Positions 1 through 60,890 of a stretch of DNA of 64,000 nt are shown here, piece by piece; the stretch's first letter is position 1, and the number at the start of each line of letters is the position of its first letter. This DNA is from Thermoanaerobaculia bacterium (GTDB lineage: Bacteria > Acidobacteriota > Thermoanaerobaculia > Multivoradales > UBA5704). The stretch is taken from assembly GCA_044226625.1 (NCBI GenBank), contig JBGAGQ010000014.1, forward strand, positions 1-64,000, in the 5' to 3' direction. The position numbers and the translations under genes are program-made. The notes beneath the pieces were generated by a model. It was given only the letters and a program-made list of their open reading frames with translations. It was not told the origin of the DNA and did no database searches.

Positions 1-964
1 CAAGTTCTGCGCGTTTTACCGCCAGCCCGGCGATCCGGAGGGGTATCTGCTGCCGTTCGAGGAGATCGGCAAGAAGATCGAGGAGACGATTGCGCTCAAC
101 GGCACCGGCGTTCTGATGCAAGGGGGCGTCCATCCCGACCTGCCGCTCTCCTACTACGAGGAATTGCTGCGGTATCTCAAGGAGCGGTACCCGACCGTCC
201 ACCTCCACGCCTTCTCGCCGCCGGAGGTGAAGTTCATCGCCAAGAAGGAGCGGATGAGCTTCTACGACGTGATCGCCCGCTTGAAGGCGGCAGGCCTCCA
301 GTCGATTCCCGGCGGCGGCGCCGAGATTCTCTCCGACGGGATTCGAAAGGACGTCCTCGCCTATCCGAAGTGCTCGTCCGAAGAGTGGATCGACATCATG
401 CGGCAGGCGCATGCGAACGGCCTGCGCACGTCGGCCACCATGATGTACGGCATGGGCGAGACGATGGAAGCGCGGATCGAGCACCTGCAGCGGATCCGCG
501 ACCTCCAGGACGAGACCGGCGGTTTCACCGCCTTCATCTCCTGGACCTTCCAACATGAGCACACCGATCTGCCCGACATCCCGGAGACCTTCGCCGAAGA
601 GTACCTTCGGACGCTCGCGGTCACGCGGCTCTTCTTCGACAACGTCGTCCATTTGCAGACCAGCTGGGTCACCCAGGGCAAGAAGATCGGCCAGCTCGCC
701 CTCTCCTTCGGCGCAGACGACATGGGCTCGATCATGATCGAGGAGAACGTGGTCTCTTCGGCCGGTACCGCATTCCGCATGAGCCAGGACGAGATGGAGC
801 ATCTGATCGAATCGGCGGGCTACGTTCCGAAGCAGAGGACGAACCTCTACGAGCGGATCGTCAGCCGCGCCGACACGGCCGATCTGGCGAAGAAGTATCG
901 CTACGCGGTCACGCCCGGAAACCGCGACCTGTTGTCGGGAGCTCTCCTGCCTGTCGTGGGCTGA
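1..964 (+). CDS. mqnC: Cyclic dehypoxanthinyl futalosine synthase (radical SAM, CofH/MqnC family), 5'-truncated by window
   Basis: Frame open from base 2 (KFCAFY.., last Cys of CxxxCxxC). Motifs MQGGVHP, HAFSPPE, SIPGGGAEIL, TSATMMYG, GADDMGSIMIEENVV. Confidence 0.85.
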   Translation, partial: KFCAFYRQPGDPEGYLLPFEEIGKKIEETIALNGTGVLMQGGVHPDLPLSYYEELLRYLKERYPTVHLHAFSPPEVKFIAKKERMSFYDVIARLKAAGLQSIPGGGAEILSDGIRKDVLAYPKCSSEEWIDIMRQAHANGLRTSATMMYGMGETMEARIEHLQRIRDLQDETGGFTAFISWTFQHEHTDLPDIPETFAEEYLRTLAVTRLFFDNVVHLQTSWVTQGKKIGQLALSFGADDMGSIMIEENVVSSAGTAFRMSQDEMEHLIESAGYVPKQRTNLYERIVSRADTADLAKKYRYAVTPGNRDLLSGALLPVVG

Positions 965-1259
965 ACGCCGAGCCGCCTTAGAGGATGGCTGTGGTTCGCA
1001 CAGAGGGCCGGCCGGGCTGCTCCGGCTCACTGCTGGCCTAAGCCAGCCCACCACCGGATTGAGCCAGCACACCGCCGGGCTGAACGAACCCGCATCGACA
1101 AACGACGGAACCGTGTCATGTCTCTCCCATTTGGCGGTGAATCCGCCGAAGACTCGATTTCTCGGGATCCGGTCTCTAAGGTTTGCGGTGTGGGAACGAA
1201 CCCACGCCAAGAGCCCGGCGGACGGAACGTGCCGAACCGGATCGACCGCGAAGTTCACC

Positions 1260-1752
1260 TTGGAGGAGATGGAACCTCCGTTGGCGGACCTGGACGATCC
1301 AATGGAGCGTACCGGCGGTCGTTCGGGGGAGCTGGAAAGTTTGTTGGCGAGCACGGACTTTCGTTTGGGAAAGCTGGAACGTCCGCGACCGAGCTTCGCT
1401 CGTCGATTGGTGGAGATAGAACGTCCGCGACCAAGTTTCGGTCGTCGTTTGGAGGAGACGGAACGCCCGTTGGAACGCTCCGAACGTCGTTTGGGGGCGC
1501 TGGAACGTCCATTGGAGCCCATTCTCCTTCCGTTGGCTCCCCATCGGGTCTCCACGGCCCTCAACGGACGATCTACGGCTCCCAAACGAACGCTGATCTC
1601 GCCCAACGGAGTTTCTATCTCGCCCAAACGGCCCGCTACGTCCTCCAATGGACGTTCTATCTCGCCCAACCGGCGACAGATCTCGCCGAACGGACGTTCC
1701 AGCTCCCCCAAACGACGATCTACGGCGCCAATGGGAGTTCCACGGCTTCCAA
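1260..1752. repeat. Degenerate 21-bp tandem repeat array with two inverted arms
   Basis: Units begin TTGG on a 21-nt grid from 1260 to 1512 (+). Complementary CCAA at 1582, 1603, 1624, 1645, 1666, 1708, then 1728 and 1749 after a 1-nt slip. 1485-1510 matches revcomp of 1692-1717 at 25/26; 1413-1426 equals revcomp of 1650-1663. Confidence 0.9.
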
Positions 1753-1945
1753 ATGAGTCTCTTTCGGCGGAAGCCGGCAAAGCCGGGTTGATTGAAATGG
1801 GAGGCCCCGCCGGTACCAGCGGTTCATGTTCAGGTCGCGCGGCTCGGGGTTCCCTCTTTTATCGGTCGTTTCTGCGGTCTCGGGTTGTGTGACACTACCT
1901 TTACGGGATTCAACGGGCGAATGACGCGCGATCGAGGGCTCCCCT

Positions 1946-2846
1946 CTAGTGAGCCCAATCGCCCGGGAGGAGCTCGGATTTGAGGTCGATCAGCCGCGAC
2001 TTGGGCAACAGTTCCGCGGTGAGCGGGTCGTCGTTCCGCCAGAGCGCCCACGCCTCTTGCCAAAACGTTTCGGCGGCCCTGGCCTCCCCTGCAAAACGGC
2101 GGGCGTGGGCCAGGTGGCCGAGGGCGTAGGCCCGCAGGCAGGCCGAGAACAGGGGTGGCACTTCACTCTTTTCAGCGACGTCCAGGGCCAGCCGGGCAAG
2201 CTCGACCGCTTCGGTCCGGCGATCCGATCCTTCGCACCTAGGGCCGCCGCCCCGTTCGCTCTCGTCGGCCAGGCGAACGGCAAGGCTCCAGCGATGGAAT
2301 ACCGGGGAGAAGCCGACCAGCATGCGGCGGTCGTCGGCGTCGAGATCGGCGAGCCGCGACCAGAGATCGTCCGCGATCTCGCGATCGGAGGCGGCCAGTT
2401 CTCCTTTCGGGCGTGTTTCCGCCGCTCGGCGTCGCCCCAAATCAGGTTTCCGATCTCGACCATTCCCGCTTCGACCCGGATGGCCATCCGGTAGAGCGCA
2501 TCGGCCGAGACCGCCCCGAGTTCCAGCGGCGGCGGCGCTTTGCGCAGCTCGCGGACGCGCACCACGGCGGTCGCCAGCTGCTCGACGAACGGCAGGGTCC
2601 ACCCCACCGCTTTCGCCAGCTTCTTCAAGGCCTCCTGAGTCGGGATTCGCTTGCCGCGCTGGTACTGCGAGATCAGGCTCTGGTCGATTCCCGATTCCGC
2701 GCGTTTGGCCGTGATCCTGCGCCGAAAGCCCGAGCGAGCCGGGGGCGCTCATCCATCTCCTTCAAATGGTTCGACGCGCCCGGCGGTGCCGCGGCGCCTC
2801 GACCGCCCTCTCCCGTTTCCGGAGGCCTTCCCTTGATCGACTTCAT
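1946..2846 (-). pseudogene. XRE-family HTH regulator with C-terminal helical/TPR-like domain, frameshifted
   Basis: Frame of ORF 1990-2628 extended upstream reads SGIDQSLISQYQRGKRIPTQEALKKLAKAVG (XRE helices). Frame switches near 2405 to the TPR-like ELARLALDVAE..RAYALGHLAHARR..AWALW. A further shift lies near 2700. Confidence 0.7.
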
Positions 2847-3152
2847 GCCGCCGCCTGAGTTGATTCCTCCGTCCGGACCGAGCGAGGCCCACGACGACGA
2901 CTGGACCTTGAAACTCGGACGGTAACTGGTTCGTCCGGGTGATCGACGACCCTTCGCCCTTGGTACGGATCGAGATCGGGAGCCGGGTGGTCGGCCTGGG
3001 GCGCCTGCTCGACTGCCGGGCGCGGTGGGAGATCGAGAAGAGGCGGGTGATTGTGGAGGTGGCTGCGGACCAGCGCGGGAACGCGCTGATCAGCGCCCTA
3101 CGCGACGAGGCGGGGCAAGGCGACGAGGCCAGAGCGCATTGGCCCCCAGTCG

Positions 3153-3543
3153 GTGAAGCCCTCGCCGTTCACCCTGCCGGCCGACGAGCTGCACCGCGTC
3201 CTCGCTGGATATCCGGGCTGGGAAATCATCGAAAACGGTGCCCGGCTCGAGCGGGTCATCCGGCTCGCCGCTCTGCGCACCGCGGCGACCGGGTCGCGAT
3301 CTGCGCCCACTTCAGCGCTCGGCAGCCGATCTGGCGCAGCGGATCGTGCGGATGGGGGTCTCGGTATCGTGTGCCTTCGACGGCGAGCGCGTGGAGGTCC
3401 GGGTTTCCGGCCACCCGGCTGGGGCTGGGGTTCGTCGAAGAGTGCGACCACGCGGGCGTGACGGGATCGTCCCGAGGAGAGGCGTCGGCATGACCGATGA
3501 CTGCGGCGGAAAAGCCGCCACCTCTTTGGCCCGTACCTGCTGA
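3153..3543 (+). pseudogene. Small hypothetical protein, possibly pterin-carbinolamine-dehydratase-like fold, frameshifted
   Basis: ELHRVLAGYPGWEIIENGARLERVIRL resembles the PCD N-terminus; continues in another frame as LAQRIVRMGVSVSCAFDGERVEVRVSG. Confidence 0.35.
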
Positions 3544-4074
3544 TCTTGCTGGCCCAAACCGACGGCGACGAAGACACGACCGAAGCGGAGGCCGCGGGCT
3601 GTCGCAAAGTGGTTGAGATGGGCGGCGGCTGGTGGGGCCTGTTCCGAAGCTGGGACGAGCCCGCGGAAGGGGACCGCCCGGTCGCGAACTTCACCGAGCG
3701 CTCCGCAGCCCTGTTCGCCGCCGCGATCTGGGAGGCTTACGCCCGCGCTCCGCTCGTCTGGCTGGACCCGACCCCGGCCCCCGAAGGGTTCTTCCGTGTC
3801 TGGCCCGCGGTCCGGAGTAGCCGAGCCGCTCGGCTGGCTGCCGATCTTCGATCCTCAGCTCGGCCAAGCGCTCGCCATGGCCGCGGCGCTAGTACGCGAT
3901 TCGGAGGCCCTTGCGACGCTGCTCGAAGCGGCCGGCGCGGAAGCGGTCGACCAGGTGGACCGGATTTTTCGGCGGCGGCTGGGGGAGCGGTTGGCGGCGG
4001 AGATTGTGGCCGGGACCGACTTCTCAACGCTAGGACAAGACAAAGTATCTGCCAGGCGAAACGCACAGGTTTGA
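3490..4074 (+). pseudogene. Hypothetical protein split across frames
   Basis: Protein-like segments in ORF 3546 (EAEAAG..WGLFRSWDEP..PVANFTERSAALFAAAI) join ORF 3613 C-terminus (LGWLPIFDPQLGQAL..ALATLLEAAGAEAVDQV); shift near 3805. Confidence 0.5.
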
Positions 4075-4099
4075 CCAAGTATGGCGATGAATTTAAGAT
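4071..4099 (+). promoter_or_regulatory. Sigma70-type promoter
   Basis: TTGACC (4071-4076), 17-nt spacer, TAAGAT (4094-4099) in an AT-rich patch; AAAGGAAGGA RBS before ATG 4133. Confidence 0.7.
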
Positions 4100-4132
4100 T
4101 CGCTTCAGATACACGAAAGGAAGGATAAACAA

Positions 4133-4489
4133 ATGTCCAAAGTGCCTTTGAGATTACTTGCAGCGCTAGTTTGTCTGATGATCTGGCCCACCGTGGCCCA
4201 AGCGAGTTGCGAGATCTGCGAGCTCGGTTCTGGTCTTGGCTCTAGCTCCCGCTGCTTTCCGGCAATCAACGATGTTGGTGTGACGTTGTGTCAGACGTTT
4301 TCTGATCCACTTGCCTGGCCTCCTTCGACCTGGTGCACCGAAGCAGGCACCTTTTGCTCCACGATCATCGTGAACGGTGGCGGCGGAGGTGCAGGTGGTA
4401 CAGGGGGAGGCGGTGGCTGCCAGGGCGGCTCGGGAGGATGCCCCGCGGAGTGTTTCAGCTGCGGTGCCGGCGGCCGTCCCCGCATCTGA
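4133..4489 (+). CDS. Secreted cysteine-rich small protein (10 Cys in mature part, Gly-rich linker)
   Basis: Sec signal ending AQA; 6-Cys domain, GGGGGAGGTGGGGG linker, 4-Cys tail CQGGSGGCPAECFSC; own promoter and RBS. Confidence 0.8.
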   Translation: MSKVPLRLLAALVCLMIWPTVAQASCEICELGSGLGSSSRCFPAINDVGVTLCQTFSDPLAWPPSTWCTEAGTFCSTIIVNGGGGGAGGTGGGGGCQGGSGGCPAECFSCGAGGRPRI

Positions 4490-38372: not shown

Positions 38373-39208
38373 GCGCTCTCCTCCGTCGAGACCGCCGCGA
38401 GGGCGCGCCGGACCGCGAGGAGAGAGGCGAGCAGCTGTTCGGCGCGCTCGGGATCGAGCTGCACGGCGGCGTCGGATAGCGCCCGTTCGGGATCCGGATG
38501 GATCTCCAGGAAGACGCCGTCCGCTCCAGCGGCGACTGCGGCGCGCGCGAGCGGCTCGGCGAACCGGCGGAGGCCGCCGCTCTGCTCGCCGCCTCCGGGC
38601 ATCTGGAGCGAGTGGGTGACGTCGTAGATCACCGCGAGTCCGTCGTCCTGCATCCAGGCGAAGCTCCGCATGTCGACCACCAGGTTGTGATAGCCGAAGG
38701 AGGTACCCCGCTCGGTGACGGTGATCCGGTCGTTGCCCGTGCTCCGCGCCTTGTCGACGATCCGTCGGAGATCGTCGGGCGCCATGAACTGCCCCTTTTT
38801 GAGATTCACCGACCGGCCGGTCGCCGCGGCCGCCACCACGAGGTCGGTCTGACGACAGAGGAACGCCGGGATTTGCAGAACGTCGCAGACCTCCGCGGCC
38901 GGACCGCAGTGATGAACCTCGTGCACGTCCGTCAACAGCGGAAGCCCCGTCTCGCGCTTCACCGCCGAAAGCCAGCGGAGCCCCACCTCGAGCCCCGGCC
39001 CCCGCGGGCTCCCCAGCGAGCTGCGGTTTGCCTTGTCGAACGATGACTTGAAGATAAGACCGATCCCGAGCCGGCGGGCCATCTCGGCGAGGCGGTGGCC
39101 CATCTCGAGCGCCAGCCCTTCGGATTCGAGCATGCAGGGGCCGGCGATGACCGGAAGTTGAACGGGATCGCCGCCGATCGGCACTCCCGGTGCGAGATCG
39201 AACGACAT
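38369..39208 (-). CDS. kdsA: KDO 8-phosphate synthase
   Basis: IAGPC, FKSSFDKANRSS, QIPAFLCRQTDL, KKGQF, ERGTSFGY; ATG 39208 (alternative TTG 39256). Confidence 0.96.
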   Translation of the reverse strand: MSFDLAPGVPIGGDPVQLPVIAGPCMLESEGLALEMGHRLAEMARRLGIGLIFKSSFDKANRSSLGSPRGPGLEVGLRWLSAVKRETGLPLLTDVHEVHHCGPAAEVCDVLQIPAFLCRQTDLVVAAAATGRSVNLKKGQFMAPDDLRRIVDKARSTGNDRITVTERGTSFGYHNLVVDMRSFAWMQDDGLAVIYDVTHSLQMPGGGEQSGGLRRFAEPLARAAVAAGADGVFLEIHPDPERALSDAAVQLDPERAEQLLASLLAVRRALAAVSTEESA

Positions 39209-60642: not shown

Positions 60643-60890
60643 GAATTCGGTCGAGCGGATGCGCTGTTCGGTTTCCTGACCGGCGAATTCGTTTTCGGGG
60701 GTCCGAACATCGATTCGCGACCGGCCGAGGCCTTTTCTCAGCGGCGCGACCGCTTTTGCCATCGGTGAGACCGCTTCGCGGATTGCCGAAAACGGTCGAC
60801 CCAGTGCCGAAACCCCTCGCGGGAGTCGGAATCTCGCTTGTGCGTCCGTAGAGCGAATTCGGCGCTCAGGAAATCGCTCCGCTCGGCCAG
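60643..60890. repeat. Degenerate 21-nt-periodic intergenic element with inverted arms
   Basis: GACCGCTT at 60748 and 60769; TGCCGAAA at 60784 and 60805; GAATTCG at 60643 and 60685. 60672-60691 matches revcomp of 60854-60873 at 18/20. Confidence 0.55.

Follow-up and report, generated by a model that had tools for sequence, protein, structure and literature searches.

An opposed array of 21-bp repeats in a Thermoanaerobaculia genome is a copy of a dispersed non-coding family linked to an expanded small-protein family

The first 64,000 nucleotides of contig JBGAGQ010000014.1 of a soil-type Thermoanaerobaculia bacterium (assembly GCA_044226625.1, here genome G000), hereafter referred to as the window, harbour an intergenic array of 21-bp units arranged in two arms which point towards each other. 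The array does not encode protein and represents an orphan copy within a dispersed family, the source copy of which lies upstream of a gene for a protein of 123 amino acids (aa). The small-protein family to which this product belongs is uncharacterised and strongly expanded. As far as can be judged from sequence, the array is tentatively regarded as a helically phased DNA-level platform which the cognate small protein may bind. The parts of the window copy are the following (window coordinates).

1152..1259, strand not assigned: outer extension on the B-arm side, non-periodic, kept in a subset of copies
1187..1208, strand not assigned: stem-loop within the extension, GGTGTGGG AACGAA CCCACGCC as read on +, conserved, the window version being weaker than the others
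1260..1535, + strand: B arm, ~13 units of 21 nt, the conserved unit TTGGGnGAGnTnGAACGTCCG alternating with a variable unit to give a 42-nt period
1536..1760, - strand: A arm, ~10 units of 21 nt, TTGGGCGAGATAGAACnTCC / TTGGnnGCCGTAGAn, directed towards the B arm

The original prediction, a model's reading of this stretch, described 13 + ~10 copies of a 21-nt unit on opposed strands with a switch near position 1535, and, in the left arm, an alternation of conserved and variable units with a 42-nt period. The former is in agreement with the sequence and with a 42-nt unit hidden Markov model (HMM), which finds six units on the + strand (1260-1527) and five on the - strand (1752-1545), equivalent to ~12-13 + 10 units of 21 nt, and places the strand switch at ~1535-1545. 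The 42-nt period is recovered by the same model, by autocorrelation and by Tandem Repeats Finder (TRF), which reports a period of 42 at 1377-1469 and 1562-1715. In the left arm (1260-1535) the autocorrelation reaches 0.63 (lag 42), 0.53 (lag 84) and 0.42 (lag 21), where the maximum of 500 shuffles is 0.39; the right arm (1536-1752) has values of 0.62 (lag 84), 0.60 (lag 42) and 0.53 (lag 21), with a maximum of 0.42 among 500 shuffles. The periodicity of both arms is far above that of the shuffled controls. The extent of 1260..1752 given earlier needs correction, since homology to other copies spans 1152 to ~1760, and the element is therefore ~600 bp long rather than 493. In alignments, homology links the B arm of the window to those of 11 other full copies and its A arm to the A arms of other copies, where the A unit occurs as TTGGGCGAGATAGAACnTCC or TTGGGCGCCGTAGAC; the outer end of the window A arm is truncated in comparison with copies that begin with a conserved ...CGATGAAGCCCCGAATGGAAGCC segment.

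Copies of this element, ~450-600 bp in length, were found at 21 loci, which are distributed over five congeneric genomes and a metagenome contig. A search of related genomes for inverted 21-periodic arrays had been put forward together with the prediction, and such arrays do recur, at 16 two-armed loci besides that of the window. Three loci are situated in G000 (the window, C9:81420-81860 and C93:114540-114790), eight in G004, seven in G002, and one each in G003 and G007; no array of the window type was detected in G001, G005 (85% complete) or G006. The DNA search covered 41 related genomes, which is the basis for the range outside the genus, and long matches were confined to the genus. Short matches of 31-37 nt in G001, G011 and G013 (E 0.007-0.01) are regarded as chance. 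A degenerate-pattern scan of wider genome contigs returned at least 120 chance stretches; among the matches listed, the unit HMM recognised real arrays only in L038 and L135, with L085, L141 and L146 showing a single weak match each. The scan of metagenome contigs yielded one locus, L159 of a JGI contig, which carries a full copy, and collections of plasmids and phages contained no match to the element.

The arms converge in all 17 two-armed loci, the + units preceding the - units, and the four remaining loci are single-armed. The two arms are different modules: A is a run of 21-nt units, B has the 42-nt period of alternating conserved and variable units, and only a 21-nt motif is common to both. 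The similarity between copies is 101 for A against A and 100 for B against B, compared with 38 for A against B within a copy. Complementarity of the arms is no greater within copies (38.4) than between copies (38.3; permutation p = 0.48). Arms that match their counterparts at ~100 without any excess complementarity to their own partner indicate that the element was copied whole, with arms that had already diverged.

Across the 12 aligned full copies, positions 1-4 of the unit (TTGG) are 93-98% conserved, positions 7 and 11 reach 96% and 92%, respectively, and the other positions range from 61 to 89%. The conserved core can hence be written as TTGG-N2-G-N3-T at a 21-bp phase, and, since the conserved positions are spaced ~10 nt apart within the unit, they lie on one face of the helix. 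This position-specific identity of the unit, together with nearly flat identity by codon position (see below), points to constraint at the nucleotide level. In the orthologous pair L021/L007 the element is 80% identical over 352 nt and the flanking genes are 87-89% identical; the remaining intergenic DNA is unalignable, and the element itself has been kept.

At five loci (G000:C93, G002:C61, G004:C163, G007:C1 and L159) the A-side neighbour of the element is an open reading frame (ORF) for the 123-aa protein, and the A arm is found ~115-340 nt upstream of the gene. The B arm has the same orientation as this gene (sense), and the A arm the opposite one (antisense). The gene-linked copy of G000 is represented by one feature.

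L002 (G000:C93) 3835-4206, - strand: 123-aa ORF

Between this gene and its array, two copies of a G/C-rich motif of ~45 nt (GGGTCCCTCCCC...GGGGGG.AGTTAGGAGGGGGGCGA) are present at ~4300-4345 and 4495-4540 of L002; they look like repetitive extragenic palindromic (REP) sequences and are absent from the orthologous L004 spacer.

Genes of the 123-aa family are present in 23 of the 24 genomes of the window's taxonomic family (2-31 matches each) and in none of the 16 genomes of the order's other families, and public data contain 1370 representative clusters at E <= 0.001. G000 harbours 19 members as detected by the family HMM, and the same search finds none on the window contig; nine that were extracted have good ribosome-binding sites and encode 120-138 aa. 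Comparison of the 123-aa protein with Pfam, PHROGs, NCBIfam and PADLOC revealed nothing meaningful: the best NCBIfam match (E = 0.03) is to an unrelated family, and the best PADLOC match (E = 0.0034) was obtained for one of 17 family members. The AlphaFold model is confident (predicted local distance difference test score 85) and consists of helices at residues 8-22 and 30-89 and of a basic tail, RPRRPPVRKKK. Fold searches led to generic helical structures only, with a best Foldseek E of 3.6, a best VIA-wide Z of 6.6 and unnamed clusters in the ESM Atlas.

The association of gene and repeats is not restricted to the window type. In nine of the ten closest G000 paralogs (identified by tblastn) the periodicity of the upstream DNA, at lags of 20 to 63 nt, exceeds the 95th percentile of the genome null, the lags being 21, 40, 42, 43 or 63; the repeat sequence differs strongly from paralog to paralog, the proteins being homologous. 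In other genera of the family an array of the 20/21 type lies within 400 nt upstream of six of the 20 genes examined, and three more genes have one at 460-870 nt. As for the genus itself, a cognate protein (at least 80% identity) is encoded by G000, G002, G004 and G007, all four of which carry the window array type; G001, G005 and G006, in which this type was not found, have only paralogs of at most 55% identity, and G003 has one array locus and no cognate gene. This co-occurrence comprises eight genomes, which are kin and not independent.

A TRF census of G000 for arrays of at least 120 nt with periods of 20-22, 40-44, 62-64 or 84 identified 73 arrays in 21 sequence clusters (e.g. C109:48366-48741, C123:4193-4467, C14:17325-17633 and C40:30180-30545). 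Arrays of the 20/21 type take up ~0.3% of the G000 genome. The periods named dominate the TRF histogram, and nearly all the arrays are located outside long ORFs. All ten arrays within 1.3 kb of a family ORF lie upstream of it. Of the ten clusters with two or more arrays, six combine one or two gene-linked arrays with orphans; one of these, cluster 8, contains the window array, the gene-linked array of C93 and the orphan of C9. Many other array types have palindromic cores, e.g. GGAAGTGACTTCC, GGATCAGTGATCC and GAATTCGAATTC, and cores of this kind are typical of sites for dimeric DNA-binding proteins. Two array types, GGAAGTSACTTCC and GTCCCGTATTCTGGAATTAC, number 13 arrays each. A second array of the window contig, G000:C132:103242-103572, is situated outside the 64-kb stretch; it has a 42-nt period and is of a different type (GGATCACT.../GATCCCGCGCGAA, cluster 5), the gene-linked member of which is at C1:25473.

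The conservation of TTGG-N2-G-N3-T at a 21-bp phase, the link to a small gene and the abundance of other 20/21-bp arrays are the grounds on which a phased protein-binding platform, one of the possibilities offered in the original prediction, still seems the best reading, with binding itself predicted. The platform would provide one site per 21 bp, that is, per two helical turns, in two opposed blocks, and the adjacency suggests the small protein as the binder. The cognate protein from contig C93 might coat the array cooperatively. At the gene-proximal array such coating could serve autoregulation, and orphan arrays such as the window copy, presumably arising by duplication from the gene-linked copy, might act as additional chromosomal landing pads. 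In line with this, L004 and L005, which are gene-linked, show shorter branches (0.051 and 0.061) than any other copy of their genome's clade, as expected of source copies.

A number of observations argue against this interpretation. The 123-aa protein has no recognisable DNA-binding domain in Pfam, PHROGs, NCBIfam, PADLOC or the fold searches, and the unit of the window array, in contrast to the palindromic cores of many other types, is not palindromic. A family gene is near only 10 of the 73 arrays, and in four of the ten multi-array clusters, among them the two that number 13 arrays, not one member has a family gene next to it. Conversely, no clear upstream periodicity accompanies five of the 19 family ORFs, and 14 of the 20 genes from other genera are without a TRF-detectable array within 400 nt. 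The window copy itself is flanked by the 3' ends of genes on both sides, a position that does not readily suggest regulation. Moreover, a period of 21 nt is also a multiple of three, the position of arrays upstream of genes fits a repeat RNA partner equally well, and clustering of copies by genome together with ragged ends fits a functionless duplicative spread.

The second of these points calls for a look at the RNA. The window array contains 22 inverted-repeat pairs in many registers, the best of which is 32 nt long and 91% complementary (1482-1513 against 1689-1720), and either strand can fold into a long imperfect hairpin of -261 kcal/mol, compared with -210.5 +/- 6.4 for shuffled sequences (z ~-8). 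A long RNA hairpin had been among the earlier suggestions, and the array does fold well, if only by construction. However, the covariation term that RNAalifold assigns to the 12 copies is +1.02, i.e. no covariation for the hairpin, and, because an excess of within-copy complementarity is likewise missing, the pairing is apparently not selected.

Beside the B arm, a smaller structure is conserved. The B-side extension is common to L004, L005, L011, L015, L006 and L159 in the B-flank alignment, and G004:C163 and G004:C76 match the window from 1152 onward. All seven copies having the extension contain the stem-loop, the fold of which is -7.0 kcal/mol in the window (z -1.3) and stronger in L004 (z -5.0) and L005 (z -3.0); four of the 15 consensus pairs show kept double changes, and the covariation term of -0.36 lends the stem weak support. 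Its origin from a tRNA fragment was considered and rejected, as ARAGORN finds no tRNA there in 14 loci and the stem-loop does not match the 3' end of the tRNA-Phe situated nearby in L001 and L159. In three G004 loci (L004, L011 and L015) an additional conserved segment follows ~60-200 nt past the stem-loop; it consists of a nested inverted repeat, AAATCTAG...CTAGATTT, around CGAGAC...GTCTCG and then TTTTGG, and is terminator-like on the A-reading strand. Rfam has no family in window positions 900-2100 at E up to 1, and a sigma-70 promoter scan of the same region returned no promoter site and one terminator-like site, which is within the shuffle expectation.

It might be supposed on this basis that the repeats are transcribed and that the repeat RNA acts together with the small protein, either in the manner of a type III toxin-antitoxin system or as a sponge or scaffold RNA; a long imperfect hairpin RNA would then be the product of the two-armed window copy. 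The strong fold of the window and the stem-loop beside the B arm would fit such a role, as would the location of the array directly upstream of the gene in ten of ten gene-near cases and the variation of array sequences between paralogs whose proteins are homologous. In the C109 paralog, as read from the sequence, a stem (ATCGCGGG/CCCGCGAT) followed by CTTTCTTG stands between the array and the ribosome-binding site. On the other hand, the protein is modelled as all-helical and matches neither ToxN/CptN/TenpN-type nor other defence families (none in Pfam; PADLOC best E 0.0034), the element has no Rfam match, and neither covariation of the hairpin nor excess complementarity of the arms is seen. 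Since the two arms differ in orientation relative to the gene, no single transcript has all units in one direction, and most arrays (63 of 73) are gene-less orphans. An RNA partner is thus considered distinctly unlikely.

The manner in which the copies are distributed raises another possibility, namely that the element is selfish or passively duplicated DNA, be it a foldback-like non-autonomous repeat, one resembling a miniature transposable element with inverted repeats (MITE), or a product of ectopic recombination, and has no function here; in that case the conserved motif would be due to gene conversion or to a recent shared ancestry, and not to selection. The number of loci per congeneric genome varies from zero to eight, and the flanks outside the element are unrelated in most copies. 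In five of five congeners the site orthologous to that of the window copy has no element. In G004, the copy L014 occupies the site of a tryptophan-halogenase-like gene of three other species, with no clean empty-site pair, and in G002:C104 the copy L018 adjoins a truncated PIN-domain gene of which only the C-terminal third is left. On the tree, copies cluster by genome with two label changes, a value as low being reached in none of 200 shuffles, and the window copy groups with G004 copies (support 95/96). Orphan arrays lean to convergent gaps, 20 of the 49 classifiable ones being in convergent, 23 in tandem and 6 in divergent gaps, and arms built of tandem sub-repeats are reminiscent of the eukaryotic Foldback/Galileo elements (PMC3573991).

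Several of these points are nonetheless offset by others. The ends of the element are ragged, the outer boundaries varying on both sides, and neither a shared terminal inverted repeat nor a target-site duplication was seen. No parent transposase was found beside the copies, transposase ends not having been compared genome-wide. The sole insertion sequence (IS) adjoining a copy, an IS21-family element with IstA and IstB in L160 (G004:C145, ~923-3601; ends TGTCGTTAGCCAC / GTGGCTAACGACA), lies at the inner end of the B arm, the A arm being missing. IS21 (L019/L160) was rejected as the parent element, for it adjoins only one arm, has ends of its own and truncates the element. The copies are 62-89% identical and therefore not recent, the unit shows position-specific conservation, and the element outlasts the adjacent intergenic DNA between species. 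The lean to convergent gaps is not significant (hand-calculated chi-square ~3.3, 2 degrees of freedom; the set of 3252 ORFs used as genes is crude). Spread without function is, on balance, rather unlikely. The related suggestion made earlier, a self-diversifying non-autonomous element, stands as far as the multi-copy, dispersed and genome-clustered nature of the family is concerned; the ragged ends and the lack of a target duplication or transposase speak against it, and nothing indicates self-diversification.

Two gene neighbourhoods of the family may be recorded here. The tryptophan-halogenase-like ORF (533 aa, G000:C86:121089-122687) occupies in G000, G003 and G006 the very site at which G004 carries the element. 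In L001 (G000:C9), positions 3316-4474 comprise tRNA-Phe and then a vapBC-like pair (VapB/CcdA-like antitoxin and PIN-domain toxin) directly beside the element.

Read inward, the arms encode the heptads described in the original prediction (LGKLERP and the like), and one might suspect two convergent small genes, or a single gene broken by inversion, encoding repeats of 7 or 14 residues (RLGEIERP...). The inward frames are indeed regular, with L and I/V/L three residues apart, the period is divisible by three, and the ATG start of the A-arm frame is present in seven of the 12 aligned copies. The codon statistics, however, are not those of a gene. The G+C content of third codon positions is 0.60 in the heptad frame and at most 0.74 in all frames, compared with 0.86 in 1571 long ORFs of the host. 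TTG makes up 72% of the Leu codons (6.8% in the host), ATA 60% of the Ile codons (0.7%) and GTA 64% of the Val codons (2.6%), and the synonymous log-likelihood per codon is -1.72, genes having -0.87 +/- 0.10 with a minimum of -1.32. Identity at the three codon positions across the 12 copies, a comparison that had been proposed at the outset, amounts to 0.88/0.82/0.79 for the A arm and 0.87/0.85/0.82 for the B arm, so that the third-position excess of change is almost nil and coding receives little support; the most conserved block, TTGG, includes synonymous sites. The position of the first in-frame stop varies between a point ahead of the switch and one more than 600 codons past it, and since ORFs extend over the array in all six frames, openness of a frame carries no weight. 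Hence, host-like codons, third-position variation and a conserved start and stop, which would mark a heptad-repeat protein gene, are all missing. The earlier remark that no convincing start or ribosome-binding site is present was correct, and the codon statistics are contrary to the arms being halves of a coiled-coil gene, an outcome named in advance as fatal to the prediction. Coding is largely excluded and would be very surprising. Even on the dullest reading of the arrays, gene callers would output false repeat proteins from them, because most or all six frames are open and the heptads are tidy.

Palindromes are a known hazard of assembly, and G000 is a metagenome-assembled genome (133 contigs, 6.6 Mb, 67.7% G+C), so a chimeric join or a mis-assembled inversion might in principle have produced the opposed arms. 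Against this, a 310-nt contig from run X2 covers 1326-1635 and a 249-nt contig from run X3, which belongs to another study, covers 1411-1653 with one differing letter; both extend across the switch, and the palindrome is therefore no assembly chimera. The same A-to-B junction recurs at a further 16 loci, spread over four other genomes plus a metagenome contig. The lack of spanning support, the other outcome by which the prediction was to fall, is accordingly not what was found, and the chance of an artefact is negligible.

The array is located in a convergent gap of the window, between the 3' ends of two genes.

2..964, + strand: 3' part of a radical S-adenosylmethionine (SAM) gene, CofH/MqnC C-terminal region (Pfam PF19288, 8.4e-34; PF04055, 2.6e-9), ending 188 nt before the element
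1946..2752, - strand: hypothetical gene, ORF without a Pfam family, its 3' end facing the array

A local promoter role of the window copy is disfavoured by this convergent arrangement. Orthologs of the radical SAM gene, with 85-87% identity, are present in five of five congeners searched; the homology ends at 942-964, and no element follows thereafter. Orthologs of the gene at 1946..2752 (81-82% identity) were found in G003 and G006, on contigs other than those with the radical SAM ortholog. The right flank of the window copy is non-syntenic in the congeners, and there is no clean empty-site pair for the window copy. Short period-21 tandem repeats reported by TRF at 39067-39107 and 60732-60776 (2.0 and 2.1 copies) are probably intragenic.

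The platform reading can be extended to a more general and, in our opinion, possible though doubtful proposal. The expanded small helical proteins and their arrays might form a two-part system in which each protein has a private 20/21-bp-phased array as its address, one array at its own promoter and orphans of the same type scattered elsewhere, the window array being one such remote landing pad. Paralog-specific nucleoprotein filaments could then mark or organise many sites, as a chromosome-wide analogue of plasmid centromere or iteron systems. If the arrays are platforms for the adjacent proteins, a module of a protein plus a private repeat address would have been multiplied approximately twenty-fold, with dozens of remote copies seeded, and would supply orthogonal pairs of protein and DNA of natural origin, as well as a novel means of chromosome marking in soil and wastewater bacteria of the Acidobacteriota type. 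The arrays are also located at synteny breaks. Literature searches at the level of titles and abstracts returned nothing on 20/21-bp arrays in Acidobacteriota, on such an organisation or on the 123-aa family, and the organisation of a protein plus a private 20/21-bp array may be undescribed.

As regards known repeats, the original prediction held that the array fits no REP, CRISPR or MITE design, with which the non-palindromic unit, the lack of spacers and the ragged ends agree. The BrickBuilt elements of Porphyromonas gingivalis and the REP sequences and bacterial interspersed mosaic elements are intergenic, multi-copy, small and non-coding, with internal tandem repeats (PMC4596501, PMC3733652). 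BrickBuilt, however, has direct repeats between terminal inverted repeats, where the window element has ragged ends, and REPs are single palindromes of 20-40 nt in high copy number, whereas the unit of the window family, TTGGGCGAGATAGAACGTCCG, is not a palindrome and the family has 0-8 loci per genome, three of them in G000. The element shares with MITEs a small size (~450-600 bp), the absence of coding and a dispersed multi-copy distribution (21 loci with unrelated flanks), but not terminal inverted repeats and target-site duplications, there being no clean pair of filled and empty sites to compare. CRISPR arrays differ in that half of the present units are inverted, and the variable 16-nt parts are homologous between genomes and therefore not spacers.

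Galileo and the Foldback (FB) elements of Drosophila are dispersed families with long inverted arms of short tandem sub-repeats (PMC3573991). Inverted arms of tandem sub-repeats are found in the present element as well, yet its arms are not copies of each other (38 for A against B, 101 and 100 for A against A and B against B) and no transposase is associated with them; in addition, unlike these eukaryotic elements, it is bacterial and lacks defined termini and target duplications.

In type III toxin-antitoxin systems the protein is restrained by the units into which a repeat RNA, encoded immediately ahead of its gene, is cleaved (PMC8860590), and the repeat sequences vary between homologous systems of toxIN, cptIN and tenpIN (PMC8860590, PMC4627078). 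The array directly upstream of a protein gene, observed for ten of ten gene-near arrays, resembles this arrangement. The differences are a protein that is all-helical and belongs to no toxin family, ToxN/CptN/TenpN-type included, the two opposed arms, the dominance of orphan arrays, and units of 20/21/42 nt in 7-20 copies rather than few units. The units of type III loci are ~36 nt long.

Iteron- and centromere-like arrays offer a further parallel. Plasmid iterons are spaced by 20-22 bp. In the parC-ParR system of plasmid R1 and in TubR-tubC the repeat sequence is private to each of the homologous systems, and R1 parC has two repeat blocks (PMC2241845, PMC6009700). Unlike these, the present arrays are situated on the chromosome in many copies, a single genome having 73 arrays and 19 paralogs, and are mostly orphans; the element has no match in plasmids or phages, no partner NTPase was seen, no search aimed at one having been made, and the 123-aa protein, for which binding is here only proposed, shows no ribbon-helix-helix or helix-turn-helix signature. 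The combination of tandem sites at intervals of about two turns with an adjacent small-protein gene is not seen at the window copy, whose contig has no family gene. It is a feature of the gene-linked copies and the paralogs, in which, as in parC-ParR and TubR-tubC, helically phased short tandem repeats stand directly upstream of the gene for a small protein.

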